Positions 1,419 to 13,343 of a DNA stretch of 21,926 bases are shown piece by piece. Origin of the DNA: a virus (Duplodnaviria; Heunggongvirae; Uroviricota; Caudoviricetes); IMG/VR virus record IMGVR_UViG_2585427776_000012. One strand, 5' to 3'. The position numbers and the translations under genes were made by a program. A model generated the notes under the pieces. The model did no database searches. It was given only the letters and a program-made list of their open reading frames with translations, and was not told the origin of the DNA. Position 1 is the stretch's first letter, and each line of letters begins with the position of its first letter.

Positions 1419-3911
1419 TTAAAAATCAGCCTGACTCGGGATCAGTTTTTGCCAGATAACTGAAACGTATTTTGCCTGGTAACGGGCGTCATCAAGTGCA
1501 TTATGGCGCTCACCTTCGAATGGAATAGCCGTTCTGGCATCGAAGTCTATGGCTTTCCCCAGCTCAACGATTGTGCGTACATCGCGATCGTTGTAGTAAC
1601 GCCATGGGCAGGGGATCCCCTGCCGTTCGTATGAACGGCGCAAAATCGTGTTGTCGAAGTTGGCTCCATTTCCCCAAACCTGAACAAAAAATTCACCGGA
1701 GTTTTCGTCGATAAATTCTCGCAATTGTAACAGTGCATCATCTAACGGGATTTCATCGGTCATAATGGCAGATTGCGCTTCGCGTGATTGCTTAAGCCAC
1801 CATTTAATGGTGTCCCGATCAATGACTCCGCCAGCAGTTTCCAGATCGATAGTCTTACTAAATTCCGGTCCCATATCTCCGGTTTGCGGATCGAAAAATA
1901 TTGCACCTATTGAGATAATCGGGGCATCAGGATTTTTTCCCATGGTTTTAAGGTCGATCATTAGATGGTCACACGTCCTGCTGGTGGATGTGATAAGGTG
2001 ATGACCGTTCACCGTAATTAAGGGATCTGCCGTCTCGCCAGTTTCACTATCGCTGGCGTGATCCTGAGCGCTGCCAGCATTCTCCTTGTGTGGATGTTCA
2101 GCGCCTTCCATTTCCTTTGGATCATTTTCCTGAACTTCAACCTGATTCTCTTCATCGAATGTTTCCTGGTATGTTGCATCACCCATCACCGCGCCACAAT
2201 CAGGGCAGTTGCCGCCGCCGGTCTGACCGCAGGCGGTGCAGACTTTTTCCACTTCCTGTTGCGCTACTGGTTCAGGCTGTTTCGTTTCTGGCTCGTTTTG
2301 TAACGCATTTGGACTGTTTTGTTCCGCTTTTTGGTAGTTCCGTTCCGCTTTTTGGTAGTTCCGTTCCGATTCATGCTGGTTCTGGTTCACAGAATCGCGG
2401 GTCTGGAGCCCCTTAACCCATTTCGGATCATTCGGGTCGCTAATCCCTGCAACAAATTCTCCGCGAGAGGCAGCAAGCAACTTATCGGCGTCAGGCTGGC
2501 TGATATTGGCTGCCTGCATAATTTTGTTTACTTCGTCAGCGGTAACTTTTACCGGCTCTGGTTGTGCGGTCGTGTCAGATGCACCAGTATTTTGTTGTGA
2601 ACCTGAGTACGTGCCGTTTTTACGTGCGAAGTATTCCTCTTTTGTGATTTCCGTAGCTCCCAAGGCTAGTGCTTTTTCCAGACCAGAAAGTTTGTTTGCG
2701 CGACCGTATTTTTCGCCATCCTTGTCGGTGAAGAGGAAGTAGAACGGCCCCTCACGCTCTACAGATGGTTCGACTTCCACTTTGCATTCGGTTTTTTCGT
2801 TGCCCGGAATTGCCGTTTCCACTGCATCAGTTTCTGGTACTGGCGACGAGAGAGTATCAGTTGCGCTCTGATTTCTTCCTTCATCTTCAAACACGCCCTT
2901 TGTAGTCAGGTATTCAGTAATGTATTTGTTCAGTGCCACAGGGTCTTTGTGAATGTCGATCGGACGTTCACGGACAAGGCCAAAAATAGTCTGGCGGTCG
3001 TAGCGAAGGGCATCAGGCTGTTTGCGCATTGATGCCGAGATACGCTTCCAGTCTTCGCGGTCGTTGTCGATAACTTCTTTTTTTGCCCAGCGATGGATGC
3101 TGCCGTCAATGTTTCCGGCATCCACATCACCAGGCCAGAGAGCGTAGGCCAGTTCGTCATCCAGTGTTTTCCATGTCTGCTTGTATTCGCGATGAATGGC
3201 AGCAATGACCGGGCTGATTTTTCCTGTTGAATTTTCAGTGTACTGTTGATTGGCTCTGGCGCGGGCGAGATCAACAACAGACGTGTATTTTCCGGTTTCC
3301 TTGCGTTCACCTTCGCGACGTTTTTTCCAGATGCGCATCTCTGCCTGAATTTCGGGCCATTTAGCACCAGGAATACATTTATGCTTAACCCACCCAATGG
3401 CGTGCAACTTAAGCTCCGGATACATGGCGTTAACTTCTGGCATTTTCATCAACGCTTCAACGATATGTCCGTCGAATGTTGCCATGTCTTCCTGCAACAA
3501 TTCCTGTGCGCTAATAACCATATCAACGGTGATGTTTTCACATGTGTCGAACTTAACCATGACAGCGTTCTGTACTTCAGGGGCCAGCTTGTCAAAAGTG
3601 ACGTTCATCGGATCGGATTCAGTCTCAACCGGGACAAAAGAAGCAGACTCCTCATCCCAGCGGTTTTCCTGCATATATTCAGCATCCCATGAATCGAGGG
3701 CAGGGCGGGGTATGCCAGGTTTATCCTCGCAGACAATAAATTTATAAGCGCAGTCCTGAGCAGCCGGATAATGTTCCAGGAATTGCCAGTGAAATTTTGC
3801 TCGAGCACGGCGTTCGTCGCCAGCTTCAATGGCTGTAGCTACAGCCACAGCGCTATCTTCTTTTATGGCCTGTTCGTCAGGAATAGCAGCGCAAATAAAG
3901 ACTTTACTCAT
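1419..3911 (-). CDS. Putative phage exonuclease, 830 aa, with C-terminal DEDD-type 3'-5' exonuclease-like domain and internal Cys4 zinc-ribbon
   Basis: Long ORF with RBS GAGGT 8 nt before the ATG. C-terminal motifs NGANFDNTIL and HNALDDARYQAKY resemble DnaQ/RNase T-like exonuclease motifs. CTACGQTGGGNCPDCG is zinc-ribbon-like. Sits in the recE/exo position of the early-left operon. Confidence 0.7.
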   Translation of the reverse strand: MSKVFICAAIPDEQAIKEDSAVAVATAIEAGDERRARAKFHWQFLEHYPAAQDCAYKFIVCEDKPGIPRPALDSWDAEYMQENRWDEESASFVPVETESDPMNVTFDKLAPEVQNAVMVKFDTCENITVDMVISAQELLQEDMATFDGHIVEALMKMPEVNAMYPELKLHAIGWVKHKCIPGAKWPEIQAEMRIWKKRREGERKETGKYTSVVDLARARANQQYTENSTGKISPVIAAIHREYKQTWKTLDDELAYALWPGDVDAGNIDGSIHRWAKKEVIDNDREDWKRISASMRKQPDALRYDRQTIFGLVRERPIDIHKDPVALNKYITEYLTTKGVFEDEGRNQSATDTLSSPVPETDAVETAIPGNEKTECKVEVEPSVEREGPFYFLFTDKDGEKYGRANKLSGLEKALALGATEITKEEYFARKNGTYSGSQQNTGASDTTAQPEPVKVTADEVNKIMQAANISQPDADKLLAASRGEFVAGISDPNDPKWVKGLQTRDSVNQNQHESERNYQKAERNYQKAEQNSPNALQNEPETKQPEPVAQQEVEKVCTACGQTGGGNCPDCGAVMGDATYQETFDEENQVEVQENDPKEMEGAEHPHKENAGSAQDHASDSETGETADPLITVNGHHLITSTSRTCDHLMIDLKTMGKNPDAPIISIGAIFFDPQTGDMGPEFSKTIDLETAGGVIDRDTIKWWLKQSREAQSAIMTDEIPLDDALLQLREFIDENSGEFFVQVWGNGANFDNTILRRSYERQGIPCPWRYYNDRDVRTIVELGKAIDFDARTAIPFEGERHNALDDARYQAKYVSVIWQKLIPSQADF
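2321..2368. repeat. Tandem 21-bp direct repeat (2.3 copies) inside the exonuclease gene
   Basis: GTTCCGCTTTTTGGTAGTTCC repeated twice plus a partial third unit; encodes the duplicated peptide NYQKAER in the low-complexity linker. Confidence 0.8.
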
Positions 3912-5141: not shown

Positions 5142-5480
5142 CATTTTTTTACGGCGTTCATATTCGTTAATATTTATGAAGCCTGTTGCCAGAAGCAGTT
5201 CGTTAATTTCATGGTTGTTTGGCTGTTTCTGGCTCTTTGAACTGGGATCTTCCACTTCTTTTTCTGCAAATTGTTTTGCTGTATCCTCTGTGCCATGGAT
5301 ATTTAAAGCTGTATCTGAAAACAGCCCAGTAAACGCATCGCGCACATTACGAGCCATATTATCAGTGTCTTTTTTTGTTACCGATTCCAATTCAAGTTCG
5401 TTCAGACGATGACGAAGTGTGTGTGCTGCAATCTCCTGGATTGAAGGAGGTAAATCTTTAAATTCCATCGTCAACCTCAT
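5130..5480 (-). CDS. Hypothetical early-left protein (112-116 aa)
   Basis: ORF in the early-left operon. Likely start is the ATG at 5468 (MEFKDLPP...) with GAGG upstream; the upstream gene's stop overlaps the alternative ATG at 5480. Confidence 0.5.
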   Translation of the reverse strand: MRLTMEFKDLPPSIQEIAAHTLRHRLNELELESVTKKDTDNMARNVRDAFTGLFSDTALNIHGTEDTAKQFAEKEVEDPSSKSQKQPNNHEINELLLATGFININEYERRKKMLSD

Positions 5481-5713
5481 CAGTCAGTGTTTCTGGTTAA
5501 CCAGCGACGCGCGCCAGCTTCAGTTTTAAACGTTTTGCTTCTGGTATATGTCATCGCGGTAAACGTGCCGTCCTGGTTGGGAAACACGCCGCATACCAGA
5601 GATTCGTTGTTGCCAAGCTCGATAGTATCCATGCTGACCTCATTTCCCCTTAACGCCGGGGTAGCGGAACAAAAACCTGCTGCATAGTTATTAAAGTTGA
5701 ACCCTGCCGTCAT
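5480..5713 (-). CDS. Hypothetical early-left protein (77 aa, or 50 aa from the internal start at 5632)
   Basis: First ORF downstream of the presumed pL region. The internal ATG at 5632 has the better RBS (GAGGT). Function unknown. Confidence 0.45.
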   Translation of the reverse strand: MTAGFNFNNYAAGFCSATPALRGNEVSMDTIELGNNESLVCGVFPNQDGTFTAMTYTRSKTFKTEAGARRWLTRNTD

Positions 5714-5924
5714 GTTCTTACGCCTCGGGCTGGCTACTTAACCCCTGACCACTGCCTGGTAACTCGAAGTATTGCCCTGCATTCTGTGGGGTGGGGAGAG
5801 GGAATGAATTAAGTTTAGTAAAATGAACTTTTCAGGTCAATGTTTTTTTATCAAAACATTTTAAGCAGGCAGCTGTTAAGCCATCACCACGATGGCATAC
5901 AGTTAATCAAATAGATGAGGTCGG

Positions 5925-8911: not shown

Positions 8912-9042
8912 CGAGATTAAAGTGCATTAGTTCAGATGCAAATTGACATTTTGTGGCACAGGGTAGAGCTAGCGTGGTTGTCCGCTTTGTGCCAATAGCG
9001 GACATTGCTGGCTCATGGTATGTTAGTTTAAGGAGGCAGGTT

Positions 9043-10065
9043 ATGCCCTGTATTTCGCTGTGGTATAATAGTTGCGCAATTGATACAAGGGAGCGTTACA
9101 TCGTGAAAATTGTTTTCGAGGTTAATGGAAAGAAAGTTCCACTAAAATCTTTAAAATACATAAGCAAAAAAGATCAACTCGAAGTAATGAAAAACTGGTT
9201 CTTTGAAAACTTTGAAGATCCGGCAAATGCTTGTCCGTATGAAAGTAGAGAAGGTGGCTATGCTTACATATATGGCGGGCCGTATGATGCGAGCGAAGAA
9301 CTACAATCCATCTTCGGTCAATATGTTAAATCTGAGTATATTGAGGAATTAGTAGATGAATTACAAACACAATGTTTTGACTGGTCTGGAAACTCAAATA
9401 ATATAGATGATTGGTACGATGATGATATCTACGACGCTGTAACGTCTTCCGGTAATCCGTATTTAAAATTCATTGATAATATCGATAAAATAAAAAAACT
9501 TGCAAAAGATAAAACTGAACAACAGCAAAAAAAACACTTGCTTAGTTTGCTCTACACGAATGTTATTACAGCTTTGGAAACGCTTTATGTTGAGCTATTC
9601 ATTAATTCTATAGAGAAAGATGATGTCTACATAGCCAATTGTATAGAAAAAGGTAAGACTGAATTTAAAGTAAGCAAAGATATTGCTGCGTTGCCTTTCA
9701 AGGGTGAACCCATCGAGAAAATTAGGGGAGAGCTAATCAGGTCAATCAAGGAACACTTGATCAGTGCAAGCTGGCATAGCACTAAAAAGGTAATCGACCG
9801 CTATGAAGCTACATTCGATATAAAAGTACAAAAAGACTGTCCGATAGAAGCTATTGAATTGGCAACCCTCAATCGAAATCACTTAGTGCATCGTGGTGGA
9901 AAGGATAAAGAAGGGAACCTCGTAGTGATTACAGACCAGGATCTTGAAACGCTGATTGAAAATGCATCGAACCTGGCAATTATGCTCTACAACAGTTTAA
10001 ATGTAGCAACGAATAAAACCACCATTTTGCAACCAGATGACAAACCGTTCATTCATGAATTTTAA
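9043..10065 (+). CDS. AT-rich cargo gene A: protein with C-terminal HEPN-like Rx4H motif (putative RNase / abortive-infection effector)
   Basis: ATG at 9043 with AAGGAGG 5 nt upstream; alternative GTG start at 9103 with AAGGGAG upstream and an extended -10 (TGGTATAAT, 9061-9069). Sharp drop to roughly one-third GC (by eye). C-terminal helical region carries LNRNHLVHRGG, matching the HEPN R-[N]-x3-H signature. Confidence 0.6.
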   Translation: MPCISLWYNSCAIDTRERYIVKIVFEVNGKKVPLKSLKYISKKDQLEVMKNWFFENFEDPANACPYESREGGYAYIYGGPYDASEELQSIFGQYVKSEYIEELVDELQTQCFDWSGNSNNIDDWYDDDIYDAVTSSGNPYLKFIDNIDKIKKLAKDKTEQQQKKHLLSLLYTNVITALETLYVELFINSIEKDDVYIANCIEKGKTEFKVSKDIAALPFKGEPIEKIRGELIRSIKEHLISASWHSTKKVIDRYEATFDIKVQKDCPIEAIELATLNRNHLVHRGGKDKEGNLVVITDQDLETLIENASNLAIMLYNSLNVATNKTTILQPDDKPFIHEF

Positions 10066-10080
10066 TAGCGCAGGTCATAC

Positions 10081-11082
10081 ATGGATATTCGCACACGAAA
10101 GACAAAATTTTTAGAGTCGTTAGATTCAACTGAAGTGATACGCAAAGCAGTAAGTCTCGCTATAGATTGCATTATTGATAATCATAATAGTAATGAAGAT
10201 ACCCCCTTAGTTATTACCAGCTATGATGATCTCTGTAGAATCCAGGTGCTAAATTATGTACAGGAGTTTTGCGAAGCTGCATTCCCTGATATGGATGAAT
10301 ATTACTTTAGTCCTAACATACTTCGCATCAACGGCAAGACTAGTGAAGAAGCTTGTATTAACTTAATTAAACTCTTAAGAAGTACAAAAGGCATGCTATT
10401 CTGGTCCGATGCCCCATCGTGGTTCGCTAGCCTCCCCGACGGATTATTCCATGTTGTTAACATTGATCAAAAAATCGTTACTCGCGGCCTTAATAAGAAA
10501 AACTCTAAGCCGACAATAATCAATAAAGATTACAGTGTAGATACACTACTATCAGAGCTATTTTTGAATGGCGCACACATGGAGCAATCCAACGTACACA
10601 ACGTTTCTGAGGGAAACATGAAGTTCTATGATGAATGCCATGCTGGATTAATCAGACCAATACCCGCTCCAATAGGCGCGTCATACGATGAAGAGATCAC
10701 AATTAATTCTCCAGATTGGCAAAAGCTCGCGTGTGTAGCTTTACGCCGCTATCAGTCGAAGGAATGTCATGACGGAATGCAATGGGATACAACCGATCAT
10801 GGTTGGACTGATGTAATCGCGTATCCATTCGTCGAAGAAATACAATCAATGGATAATAGTGGTTATCGACAATGTTTAGTTGGGCTGGTCACAATAAACA
10901 ATTCAAATGCAAATTCTCCGTACCTATCTACCGTTTGGATACATCCATTTTATCGCAGGAGAGGGTTATTAAGTAAGTTATGGCCAAAATTACAAGAGTT
11001 ATATGGAAGTAACTTCGAAATTGAGCGACCTAATGAAAATATGAAAGCATTTCTGAAAAGTGCGAAACACGCAGATTACTAA
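10081..11082 (+). CDS. AT-rich cargo gene B: protein with C-terminal GNAT-fold acetyltransferase-like domain
   Basis: 333-aa ORF 15 bp after gene A, same AT-rich composition. C-terminal IHPFYRRRGLLSKLWPKL fits GNAT motif A (acetyl-CoA binding R/Q-x-x-G-x-G/A). N-terminal ~220 aa unrecognised. Confidence 0.6.
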   Translation: MDIRTRKTKFLESLDSTEVIRKAVSLAIDCIIDNHNSNEDTPLVITSYDDLCRIQVLNYVQEFCEAAFPDMDEYYFSPNILRINGKTSEEACINLIKLLRSTKGMLFWSDAPSWFASLPDGLFHVVNIDQKIVTRGLNKKNSKPTIINKDYSVDTLLSELFLNGAHMEQSNVHNVSEGNMKFYDECHAGLIRPIPAPIGASYDEEITINSPDWQKLACVALRRYQSKECHDGMQWDTTDHGWTDVIAYPFVEEIQSMDNSGYRQCLVGLVTINNSNANSPYLSTVWIHPFYRRRGLLSKLWPKLQELYGSNFEIERPNENMKAFLKSAKHADY

Positions 11083-11398
11083 TTTATGAATCAGTCTGTG
11101 GAGTTAGGGTTGGTGTCAACAAGTAGGGTAAGAGCCTCAACGTGATGCTATGCCGACCTGCTCCCTGAGAATTCACACAGAAGGCTGCTAGCAATGTCTG
11201 CAGATCGCTCAAAGCGGACTAGAAGGTTAGCTTGCGTCGGACTTGGCGTATTTAAAGAAGTGCTGGTGGTGACTGGTTGTTGTGTTCCATTTCTACAGAA
11301 CAAAATCACAGAAACTATACCCAATAGTTATATTGAATCAATGATGAGACAGCCTCATATTTATCAGAACTGGTGTACGTCCAATACAGGAGGTTGTC

Positions 11399-11488: not shown

Positions 11489-11569
11489 TTTTATATTGGC
11501 GAGGTGACGGGAGTTAAGTAGAATTGCTGCGGGTGCTTGAGGCTATCTGCCTCAGGCATGAACACCAAA

Positions 11570-11650
11570 GGCAGATAGAGAAAAGCCCCAGTTAATATTA
11601 CGCGTCCTGCAAGACGCTTAACATTAATCTGAGGCTCAATCTATGAACGG
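11570..11650 (-). ncRNA. sok: Predicted Sok-like antisense RNA (position inferred, boundaries approximate)
   Basis: In hok/sok loci the antisense RNA is transcribed opposite to the hok leader across the mok translation start. Placed by analogy; promoter not confidently identified. Confidence 0.3.
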
Positions 11651-11699
11651 CAAATCTAGGTTAGCCTCTTACGTGCCGAAAGGCAAGGAGAAGCAGGCT

Positions 11700-11855
11700 A
11701 TGAAGCAGCAAAAGGCGATGTTAATCGCCCTGATCGTCATCTGTTTAACCGTCATAGTGACGGCACTGGTAACGAGGAAAGACCTCTGCGAGGTACGAAT
11801 CCGAACCGGCCAGACGGAGGTCGCTGTCTTCACAGTTTACGAACCTGAGGAGTAA
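11700..11855 (+). CDS. hok: Hok-family type I toxin (in-frame upstream extension from 11643 = mok-like leader ORF)
   Basis: Product MKQQKAMLIALIVICLTVIVTALVTRKDLCEVRIRTGQTEVAVFTVYEPEE matches the Hok/Gef family as recalled. Upstream leader GGGTGCTTGAGGCTATCTGCCTCAGG resembles the conserved hok mRNA 5' end. Intrinsic terminator downstream. Confidence 0.85.
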   Translation: MKQQKAMLIALIVICLTVIVTALVTRKDLCEVRIRTGQTEVAVFTVYEPEE

Positions 11856-11920
11856 GAGACCCGGCGGGGGAGAAATCCCTCGCCACCTCTGATGTGTCAG
11901 GCATCCTCAACGCACCCGCA

Positions 11921-11946
11921 CTTAACCCGCTTCGGCGGGTTTTGTT
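11921..11946 (+). terminator. Rho-independent terminator of the hok transcript
   Basis: ACCCGCTTCGGCGGGT hairpin followed by TTTTGTTTTTT. Confidence 0.75.
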
Positions 11947-12296: not shown

Positions 12297-13343
12297 GTGC
12301 GGGTATTACTTCGACCTGTTCTGGTACCGGAACTCGGGCTGGTGATCGTTAAGCCGGGCCGTGAATCCATGCCGGTATTCCACAATACCCGGGTACTGGT
12401 GGAGCCGGAACCGAAAAGCATGCGTAATCTGCCGTCCGGGGTCGTTCCTGCCGTTCGCCAGCCGCTGGTGGAAGACAAAACATTGCTGCCGTTTTTCAGT
12501 AACGCACGGGTAATTCGTGCTGCTGGTGGTGCTGGTGCATTGTCTGACTGGCTGTTGCGCAATATTAAATCCTGCCAGTGGCCACACGGCGATTATCATC
12601 ACAGCGAAACCGTTATTCACCGTTATGGTACCGGCGCAATGGTGTTGTGCTGGCACTGCGACAACCAGCTGCGTGACCAGACATCCGAATCACTCGGGCA
12701 ACTTGCTCATCAAAACCTGTCAGCATGGATGATTGACGTCATCGGTCACGCAATAAGCGGTACGCAGGAGCGTGAATTATCTCTGGCTGAATTATCCTGG
12801 TGGGCGGTCCGCAATCAGGTGGCGGACGCGCTACCGGAAGCGGTATTACGTCGTTCGCTGGGGTTGCGTGCGGAAAAAATCCGCTCAATGTACCGTGAAA
12901 GCGACATCGTACCGGGAGAGCAGACCGCCACCAGCATACTGAAGCAGCGCACAAAAAATCTTGCGCCGCTGCCTCACCCCCACCAGCAAACCCCGCCACA
13001 GGAAGAGACGGTGGTCAGCATTGCCGTTGATCCTGAGTCTCCGGAATCTTTCATGAAACGACCTAAACGTCGCCGCTGGGTTAACGAGAAATACACACGC
13101 TGGGTGAAGACACAGCCGTGTGCGTGTTGTGGTAAGCCAGCCGACGATCCCCATCACCTGATTGGTCATGGTCAGGGCGGAATGGGGACAAAATCTCACG
13201 ATATTTTCACGCTACCGCTGTGTCGGGAGCATCACAACGAGCTTCATGCGGATCCTCTGGCGTTCGAAGAAAAGCATGGTTCTCAGGTTGATTTAATTTT
13301 TCGTTTTCTTGATCACGCCTTTGCAACTGGCGTGCTTGGGTAA
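12297..13343 (+). CDS. YdfU-like (DUF968) prophage protein with C-terminal Cys/His (HNH-like) motif
   Basis: GTG start with GGAGG 6 nt upstream. C-terminus CACCGKPADDPHHLIGHGQGG...CREHHNELH. Recalled as similar to Qin prophage YdfU; in Qin, hokD and ydfU are also neighbours. Confidence 0.65.
   Translation: MRVLLRPVLVPELGLVIVKPGRESMPVFHNTRVLVEPEPKSMRNLPSGVVPAVRQPLVEDKTLLPFFSNARVIRAAGGAGALSDWLLRNIKSCQWPHGDYHHSETVIHRYGTGAMVLCWHCDNQLRDQTSESLGQLAHQNLSAWMIDVIGHAISGTQERELSLAELSWWAVRNQVADALPEAVLRRSLGLRAEKIRSMYRESDIVPGEQTATSILKQRTKNLAPLPHPHQQTPPQEETVVSIAVDPESPESFMKRPKRRRWVNEKYTRWVKTQPCACCGKPADDPHHLIGHGQGGMGTKSHDIFTLPLCREHHNELHADPLAFEEKHGSQVDLIFRFLDHAFATGVLG

Follow-up and report, generated by a model that had tools for sequence, protein, structure and literature searches.

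Among the systems closest to the locus described here, HepT/MntA (type VII, HEPN/MNT) couples a HEPN protein of about 130 residues to an MNT nucleotidyltransferase that is required, RnlA and LsoA (phage antidote Dmd) need the antitoxins RnlB and LsoB, and PD-T4-2, a defence system of Escherichia coli mobile elements, combines a RiboL-PSP-type HEPN protein as its B component with a DUF262/NsnA-type partner (Vassallo et al. 2022). The GNAT toxins TacT, AtaT, KacT and ItaT are single-domain proteins of about 170 residues that come with RHH/DUF1778 antitoxins. Here we analysed a stretch of 21,926 nucleotides from a virus of the Caudoviricetes (IMG/VR record IMGVR_UViG_2585427776_000012; the window), in which a cassette carries two genes, A and B, that a sequence-only reading had taken for a defence or toxin-immunity pair of a HEPN-motif and a GNAT-domain protein and had not recognised as a described system. 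The pairing has been a described one since April 2026: it is DS-33, for which others have shown experimentally that it protects against phages (DeWeirdt, Mahoney & Laub, 'DefensePredictor', Science 2026; PMC13092281). As a defence system the cassette is already known. Our reading, to which we give a probability of about 0.8, is that the cassette is DS-33 residing in a lambdoid prophage, that gene A alone protects while gene B is co-transcribed but unneeded, and that the two move jointly in one module with shared hairpin ends.

DS-33 differs from each of the systems named above. It resembles PD-T4-2 in that relatives of gene A match the RiboL-PSP family PF18735, but its partner is a GNAT protein, DS-33A has an extra HEPN_RES_NTD1 domain and works alone, and the PADLOC 2.0 models PD-T4-2_A and PD-T4-2_B match neither window protein. 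Compared with HepT/MntA the gene order is reversed, DS-33A is far longer (320 residues) with its extra N-terminal domain, and the GNAT partner is unneeded for viability. There is no sequence relationship between DS-33A and RnlA/LsoA, and gene B could only hypothetically play the antidote's part. With the GNAT toxins gene B shares the GNAT fold, the acetyl-CoA motif A and carriage on mobile elements; in contrast to them it has 333 residues in two domains, with an extra N-terminal domain of 170 residues, it is flanked by the HEPN gene and by non-coding DNA instead of an antitoxin gene of that kind, and it is not toxic enough to block cloning without gene A (PMC13092281). Toxin-antitoxin readings of the HepT/MntA and GNAT-toxin kind were rejected on the type of partner and the viable deletion strains.

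Published phenotypes of DS-33

The supplement of the DefensePredictor paper (PMC13092281, Tables S6-S9) lists the accession of gene A, and Table S6 there equates the working identifier 'GNAT' with DS-33 (WP_014639476.1 + WP_000354965.1) and scores it as defensive. DS-33 is absent from the main text of that paper and the protein accessions occur in the supplement only, with none in the main texts searched. The paper gives no mechanism, co-occurrence analysis or cassette boundaries for DS-33, and the ends described below come from our analysis. The window agrees with DS-33 in gene content, gene order and the 15-bp gap; its proteins are identical to the tested ones at 319 of 320 residues (A) and 331 of 333 residues (B), the tested alleles carrying K144N in A and S170P and P289L in B, where S170 and P289 of the window are the consensus residues. 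In the authors' own analysis DefensePredictor gave gene A a log-odds of 9.45 and gene B one of 1.08, and the best HHblits match of A was PD-T4-2_B, a RiboL-PSP-HEPN protein, with a probability of 96.1 over 55% coverage (PMC13092281).

The tested clone carried DS-33 with its native promoter/upstream region on a low-copy plasmid in MG1655 and was active. Its phenotypes are given in Table S7 as -log10 efficiency of plating (EOP), in two replicates, for five phages (PMC13092281). The wild-type system gave values of 3.8/2.6 for T7, 3.3/2.4 for T3, 4.0/2.0 for Bas67, 5.0/5.9 for Bas26 and 0.8/0.1 for T5. With the HEPN gene deleted the values were 0.1/-0.3, -0.5/0, 0/-0.2, 0.5/0.3 and 0.5/0.1, respectively, and with the R258A substitution 0.8/0.5, -0.3/0.3, 0.5/0, 0.7/0.4 and 0.4/0.3, whereas the strain deleted for the GNAT gene gave 4.8/4.3, 3.3/3.3, 4.0/3.3, 5.0/4.9 and 1.7/0.5 (PMC13092281). 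The HEPN gene and its R258 are therefore necessary for a restriction of T7, T3, Bas67 and Bas26 by 2-6 logs, while the GNAT gene is dispensable and defence tends to strengthen on its loss. The idea of a toxin-immunity pair, or of a partner that obligatorily modifies the other, is not supported by these data: the GNAT deletion is viable and defence is intact or stronger. With respect to defence our analysis bears out what had been published, and the type of immunity is not a new one; the comparative genomics below shows independently that the defence unit is a single HEPN protein.

Hairpin elements at the cassette ends

Compact cassettes are known from several mobile architectures, among them the 'morons' of lambdoid phages, the cassettes of T4-type phages flanked by promoter early stem-loops (PeSLs), integron cassettes with their attC sites, mobile insertion cassettes and miniature inverted-repeat transposable elements (MITEs). 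The DS-33 cassette is like these in being compact, low in GC, promoter-bearing and placed between backbone genes, and its ends are likewise palindromic, with alternative cargos and tandem arrays. The two genes lie in a module of about 2.24 kb (8980-11219) bounded by inverted-repeat arms that match at 26/33 positions, a score that 0/2000 shuffles of both boundary regions reach (Table 1). The outer 24 nt of each arm form a palindromic element, T-type on the left and A-type on the right. Homology starts at the T-type element in copies from Erwinia, Enterobacter, a P4-like satellite and Mangrovibacter, and it stops at the outer edge of the A-type element in copies from Erwinia, the P4-like satellite, a Citrobacter island and a Mangrovibacter prophage.

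The two elements form an inverted pair with RTT on the cargo side, the T-type consensus being GTCCGCTtTGTGCCAg.AGCgGAC and the A-type consensus GTCCGCTtTGAGCGAgaAGCGGAC. Conservation is limited to the 24 nt and this RTT (a consensus of 24-27 nt over 40 cargo types). As single-stranded DNA the consensus elements fold into an 8-bp stem with an 8-nt loop (-7.6 kcal/mol, z about -4 to -4.7). The left element of the window folds at -9.3 kcal/mol (z -4.7), and the hairpin on the right is degenerate (-3.0 kcal/mol, z -0.6). Almost no compensatory base-pair changes were seen in the stem: what is conserved is the palindromic sequence, any structural role is hypothetical, and the palindrome may be a protein site.

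Scanning viral contigs with GTCCGCTTTGNGCNANNNGCNGAC returned at least 120 stretches, and the counts that follow are among the matches listed. There were at least 71 adjacent convergent hairpin pairs, and 67 of the 71 listed joined one GTGCC-type to one GAGCG-type hairpin. They enclose at least 45 cargo clusters (0.4-5.8 kb, GC 0.32-0.52), and 50 of 70 cargo reading frames point from the T end towards the A end. The cargos are for the most part known or candidate defence systems. The lambdoid slot alone holds at least 31 cassettes from at least 15 cargo clusters, there are at least 25 other flank contexts besides, and several contigs carry tandem arrays in which about 16-18 nt separate the end of one cassette from the start of the next. 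When 20 representative cargo proteins were compared with the PADLOC defence models, 14 matched: retron RT-Toprim I-C, ThsB, PycC (Pycsar), Tmn, NsnA/PD-T4-2_A, PDC-M38A/AbiL, PD-T7-1 and PD-T7-3, and further PDC-S06, S15, S33, S39, CARF-ADA and Hp2. A true PD-T4-2_A/NsnA-like cassette exists elsewhere (L073) with the same hairpin ends. The same two elements also flank the cargo that phages Tritos and Evi carry at the site of DS-33, between DUF977 and hokD, and a laboratory strain, E. coli K-12 MG1655 (NC_000913.3), offers a further example: flxA, in the cryptic prophage Qin, lies between a T-type element at 1645981-1646004 and an A-type element at 1646972-1646995. Part of the ydfV open reading frame (ORF) is also inside this Qin cassette, and relBE-hokD is just outside it.

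These ends differ in several respects from the architectures just named. An integron cassette carries a single attC, its core sites being R'' and R', and is linked to an IntI integrase, whereas here two different hairpins stand inverted to one another; this candidate was rejected, the inner flank being RTT and only sometimes GTT, with no adjacent integrase in the window. Of the traits of MITEs and mobile insertion cassettes the inverted repeats are present; a search of 33 distinct flank pairs for target-site duplications turned up no directly adjoining repeat of at least 4 bp, and no transposase was identified; more generally, neither a linked integrase nor a transposase was recognised at the hairpin-bounded cassettes. 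The ends also differ from the mobile cassettes named above in having no T-run terminator. In a partial coverage of the literature we found no paper with these hairpin sequences or with hairpin-bounded defence cassettes, and the finding that many defence cassettes have such ends in common appears to be new.

The hairpin ends are most economically read as handles for the exchange of cassettes among prophages, satellites and islands. Tentatively, and at a little under even odds, we assign the DS-33 cassette to an undescribed family of exchangeable cassettes with T/A hairpin ends acting as exchange handles, its GNAT gene being perhaps a brake or antidote that other elements have kept alone. The exchange could run by short-homology recombination through phage RecET/Red-type enzymes, beside which the large exonuclease encoded upstream in the prophage may be noted, or through a dedicated recombinase. 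If the ends do mediate exchange, they would give a concrete, testable answer to how defence systems are shuffled among prophage hotspots, and new defence cargo could be sought by a simple signature in the sequence. They are the most novel lead to come from the window.

Several smaller observations concern the same elements. Outside the lambdoid slot the 12 nt beyond the A-type hairpin read (C/G/T)GTCA(A/G)ATTT(A/G)A in six contexts (L049, L086, L120, L131, L134, L153), and the linkers of the arrays are similar to CTTYAGCTCAGT, so that the conserved unit may reach past the hairpin. A third palindrome of the window, GTCCGC-N9-GCGGAC at 12807-12827 inside the DUF968 gene, is without the loop consensus and probably unrelated.

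The HEPN and GNAT proteins

Gene A encodes a protein with the all-alpha helical bundle of a HEPN fold. Its motif LNRNHLVHRGG, already pointed out in the sequence-only reading as an Rx4H, places R258 at codon 9874-9876 and H263 at codon 9889-9891 in the numbering of the 320-residue protein, and none of 55 relatives deviates at E159, R258, H263 or R264. The window protein reaches 22.4 bits (E 1.6e-4) with HEPN_RES_NTD1 (PF18870; cut-off 27.4) and does not match RiboL-PSP HEPN (PF18735); in contrast, 51 of the 55 relatives match the former at E < 0.01 and 26 of the 55 match the latter (best E 7e-11). The N-terminal domain is also found fused to the PIN_8 nuclease and to other C-terminal domains, as would be expected of a shared sensor/regulatory module. 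HEPN_RES_NTD1 is shared with PIN and, by Pfam definition, RES effectors.

The protein of gene B has a GNAT fold, and the predicted motif-A-like segment IHPFYRRRGLLSKL occupies its residues 287-300. Against the pattern Q/R-x-x-G-x-G/A the motif reads R292-R-R-G295-L-L, in which R292 is invariant, G295 is kept in 37 of 45 relatives and the last position is L or M; its PF00583 score is 20.0 bits against a cut-off of 20.7. The structural neighbours are mostly protein lysine acetyltransferases (alpha-TAT, HAT1, ESCO1, MYST), no nucleotidyltransferase match was found, and the C-terminal module also exists as stand-alone proteins of about 160 residues. As judged from sequence and fold, DS-33B is acyl-CoA-dependent acetyltransferase-like and has its own evolutionary history. 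P289 (codon 10945-10947), which adjoins the acetyl-CoA loop, is proline in all 44 aligned relatives and in the window, and the P289L allele of the tested DS-33B may be impaired. Scans of both proteins with PADLOC and NCBIfam returned nothing meaningful, PADLOC giving chance-level matches only at E <= 1.

Distribution of the two genes

Loci were taken from viral contigs, species-representative genomes and assemblies, and each was searched for both the A and the B protein. With the same short gap the pair occurs in three genera, namely in E. coli prophages, on an Erwinia chromosome (A 93%, B 89% identical to the window) and in mobilisable islands of Aeromonas (A 86-87%, B 78-79%), where it stands beside Thoeris (ThsA, ThsB), TIR and SIR2 genes. 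It is limited to identities of at least 86% for A and 78% for B. Outside this one young clade the partners separate, and there the co-occurrence that a pair would predict is largely missing, an outcome that the sequence-only reading had itself named as counting against it. Gene A is solitary at 56-74% identity in ten viral contigs, two of them with A between the replication gene A and ogr/portal of P2-like prophages and three with A beside an integrase, and at 30-35% identity in four further viral contigs; it is without B in 14 of the 19 viral loci with a full-length A. Gene B is rare (5/100,044 species representatives) and without A in four of the five. At 40-50% identity it is solitary on the chromosomes of Neptunicella, Marinomonas, Idiomarina and Arsukibacterium, and by sequence comparison these homologues from marine gammaproteobacteria are the only truly solitary B lineages. 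The loci at 86-91% identity with B alone were considered as ancestrally solitary B genes and this was rejected, their DNA aligning as deletion derivatives of the A-B cassette.

B is without A in at least seven such derivatives, which fall into three main types (Table 1). The B ORF is intact in all three, that is, after at least three independent deletions of A; a fourth deletion (L040) fused an upstream replication gene to B residues 133-333. Type ii retains a strong ribosome-binding site (RBS) and, behind it, a mini-ORF in which an ATG leads into the final 12 codons of A and which stops 15 bp before B; this suggests that translational coupling is being preserved. The ratio of non-synonymous to synonymous substitution rates (dN/dS) of B is 0.22-0.5, with 0.48 between two type ii lineages (36 non-synonymous and 19 synonymous changes). 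The two genes form neither an obligate pair nor a couple of toxin and immunity. The distribution agrees with the published genetics in that A works alone and B is kept for a reason of its own.

Side observations on these loci can be added. In the Aeromonas islands (L041-L048) the A-B pair is preceded, at a distance of about 165 bp, by a conserved ORF of 138 residues, roughly in the place of the 140-residue DUF977 gene in E. coli. Between gene B and the right hairpin the Erwinia, P4-like satellite and Citrobacter copies have an extra segment of about 47 nt (GCAGATTTATAACATGCTAAACATC...), which is absent from Mangrovibacter and from the window, where it would fall at 11153-11155. The Citrobacter island L059 also holds a second hairpin-bounded cassette with a 206-residue protein carrying RNKLYAH (964-1584) and a 495-residue protein (1953-3440); downstream lies a 169-residue protein (5335-5844) with RNNLFH, which is Rx4H-like, so that the island looks like a HEPN-like gene cluster.

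Role of gene B and proposed mechanism

That the two might be ordinary genes of phage housekeeping or of the nin region, uninvolved in conflict, we regard as practically refuted. Their position among early and nin-region genes and the annotation of both their families (PHROG 17908 and 16994) as 'unknown function' would be compatible with it, but the published plaque assays contradict it (PMC13092281), only 205 of 5426 complete E. coli genomes carry the cassette against about 990 for its flanks, and the genes also occur outside phages beside Thoeris and SIR2, with other defence cargo at the same site. The question is rather what gene B does. In a reading modelled on HepT/MntA, which the sequence-only reading had raised, the GNAT protein would chemically modify and restrain either the HEPN nuclease or the substrate of that nuclease, acting as a brake without being essential or giving the prophage self-immunity. 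This would account for the tight linkage of A and B with a conserved 15-bp gap and for their joint movement among E. coli, Erwinia and Aeromonas, for the gain in restriction when the GNAT gene is deleted (T7 +1.0/+1.7 log, T3 0/+0.9, Bas67 0/+1.3, T5 +1.0/+0.5; PMC13092281) and for the lysine acetyltransferases among the structural neighbours of gene B, and the B-only derivatives in the P4-like satellite and another prophage would fit an antidote for entering hosts that bear DS-33A. We nevertheless hold it to be rather unlikely: the EOP shifts are mostly no larger than 1 log, come from two replicates and are opposite for Bas26, the viability of the GNAT-deletion strain means that B is no strict antitoxin (PMC13092281), most A-family genes are without B, deep B lineages are without A, and B has a far lower DefensePredictor log-odds than A. 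That A and B are two unrelated cargo genes sharing a cassette, B having its own function in defence against phages beyond the tested panel, in counter-defence or in host modification, seems possible if somewhat doubtful. Here the solitary marine B lineages, the stand-alone proteins of the C-terminal module, the survival of the B ORF and of the 5' regulatory region of the cassette through at least three independent deletions of A, and the dN/dS of 0.48 between two lineages sharing a deletion count in favour; yet the HEPN-deleted construct (with the P289L allele) protected against none of the five phages (PMC13092281), gene B matches no PADLOC model, and purifying selection in the A-less lineage is weak and barely distinguishable from neutrality.

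Several points also weigh against the preferred reading, in which DS-33A alone protects and the co-transcribed gene B is unneeded. The mutants were assayed on five phages only and in two replicates, and no RNase activity, RNA target or trigger has been reported for DS-33A, nor whether immunity is abortive or direct (PMC13092281). The dispensability of the GNAT gene rests on an allele mutated at a family-invariant proline, so that it may understate the effect of the consensus allele, and B could be a brake, an antidote or a gene with a separate function. The window proteins fall under the Pfam cut-offs for PF18870 (gene A) and PF00583 (gene B) and have no match to PF18735 or to PADLOC models; the family assignments come from relatives, folds and the HHblits result of the DS-33 authors. 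The cassette promoter is a likely one, being a consensus match and not demonstrated.

The mechanism we propose for DS-33A is modelled on HEPN nucleases such as Cas13, Csm6, HepT and RnlA/LsoA (Anantharaman et al. 2013). DS-33A would be inactive in uninfected cells, as no antitoxin is needed. Infection might be sensed through its N-terminal or middle region, with the HEPN_RES_NTD1 domain as the best candidate for a sensor or regulator, whereupon the HEPN domains would dimerise into a composite Rx4H active site. Cleavage of RNA (tRNA, rRNA or mRNA) would then stop translation and phage growth, at a cost probably borne by the infected cell. Gene B is at best guess a damper or tuner of gene A, or it may serve the element in a separate function.

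Site, promoter and gene starts

The prophage is an E. coli lambdoid one integrated beside ompW, and the same DNA is found in many complete genomes including that of the type strain ATCC 11775. Its annotated order is int, xis, exonuclease, dicB, a LexA-family repressor gene, a Cro/CI-family regulator gene, ydaT, replication protein, DUF977, two hypothetical proteins (genes A and B), hokD, DUF968, rusA, Q, DNA methyltransferase, tRNAs, lysis genes and terminase. Much of what the sequence-only reading had said of the layout is borne out. The cassette sits at the junction of the replication genes (replisome organiser, DUF977) with hokD/DUF968/rusA/Q, it is AT-rich (GC 0.36-0.41 over 9001-11000 against 0.48-0.56 on either flank), and the two genes are same-strand neighbours with 15 bp between the TAA of A (10063-10065) and the ATG of B. 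The phage GenBank records of INPHARED hold the flank only and not the cassette. In phages Tritos and Evi the slot between DUF977 and hokD is filled by other cargo, an FRG-like, PDC-S15 protein in the former and a regulator with a small acetyltransferase in the latter. With an extended -10 of its own, atypical GC, a place between backbone genes and alternative cargo in relatives, the cassette has the marks of a moron, and its standing as prophage-borne cargo in a variable slot is supported.

Table 1. Positions of the cassette features in the window and make-up of the derivatives that lost gene A
Feature	Position	Strand	Remarks
Left end, T-type 24-nt hairpin element GTCCGCTTTGTGCCAATAGCGGAC	8980..9003	+	inverted-repeat arm 8980-9012
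Upstream extended -10-like element TGGTATGTT	9016..9024	+	read from sequence; followed by AAGGAGG (9030-9036) and a non-conserved ATG at 9043
Extended -10 TGGTATAAT, likely cassette promoter	9061..9069	+	consensus match; RBS AAGGGAG follows at 9087-9093
Gene A (DS-33A), 320 residues	9103..10065	+	HEPN_RES_NTD1-like N-domain (about residues 1-100); RiboL-PSP-type HEPN C-domain (about residues 140-308)
Gene B (DS-33B), 333 residues	10081..11082	+	orphan alpha/beta N-domain (about residues 1-170); GNAT module (about residues 180-333); motif A RRRGLL 10954-10971
Right end, A-type 24-nt element GTCCGCTTTGAGCGATCTGCAGAC	11196..11219	-	inverted-repeat arm 11187-11219
Deletion type i (L038, L056-L058)	8979-9079 joined to 10004 onward		-10 element kept
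Deletion type ii (L039, L062)	8982-9036 joined to 10024 onward		in P4-like satellite and Mangrovibacter prophage
Deletion type iii (L059-L061)			remnant of A codons 257-320; Citrobacter

The extended -10 that had been proposed is present as a perfect match, and Erwinia and the type i deletion derivatives keep this site in the form TGGTAYAAT; a simple promoter scan did not list it because its -35 is poor. The type ii derivatives have lost this second -10 and kept the upstream TGGTATGTT instead. The start of gene A, earlier placed at the ATG, most likely lies at the GTG at 9103: PGAP calls the same start, the homologues have 310-320 residues, and the ATG at 9043 is replaced by ACG in Erwinia and frameshifted in Enterobacter. 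With this start an earlier contradiction is gone, in that the promoter previously fell inside the proposed ORF and now lies upstream of gene A. Gene B, for which a strong RBS had been claimed, has instead a weak one (AGG at 10072-10074). The promoter and terminator scan found no intrinsic terminator after gene B, and Rfam gave no RNA family within the cassette, the sole match being sok downstream. There a hok/sok locus follows, in which the antisense RNA sok (113 bits with Rfam RF01794) is accompanied by the hokD ORF (11531-11705 and 11643-11855), and an isrK-like match at 11864-11945 is weak (27 bits, under the gathering score).

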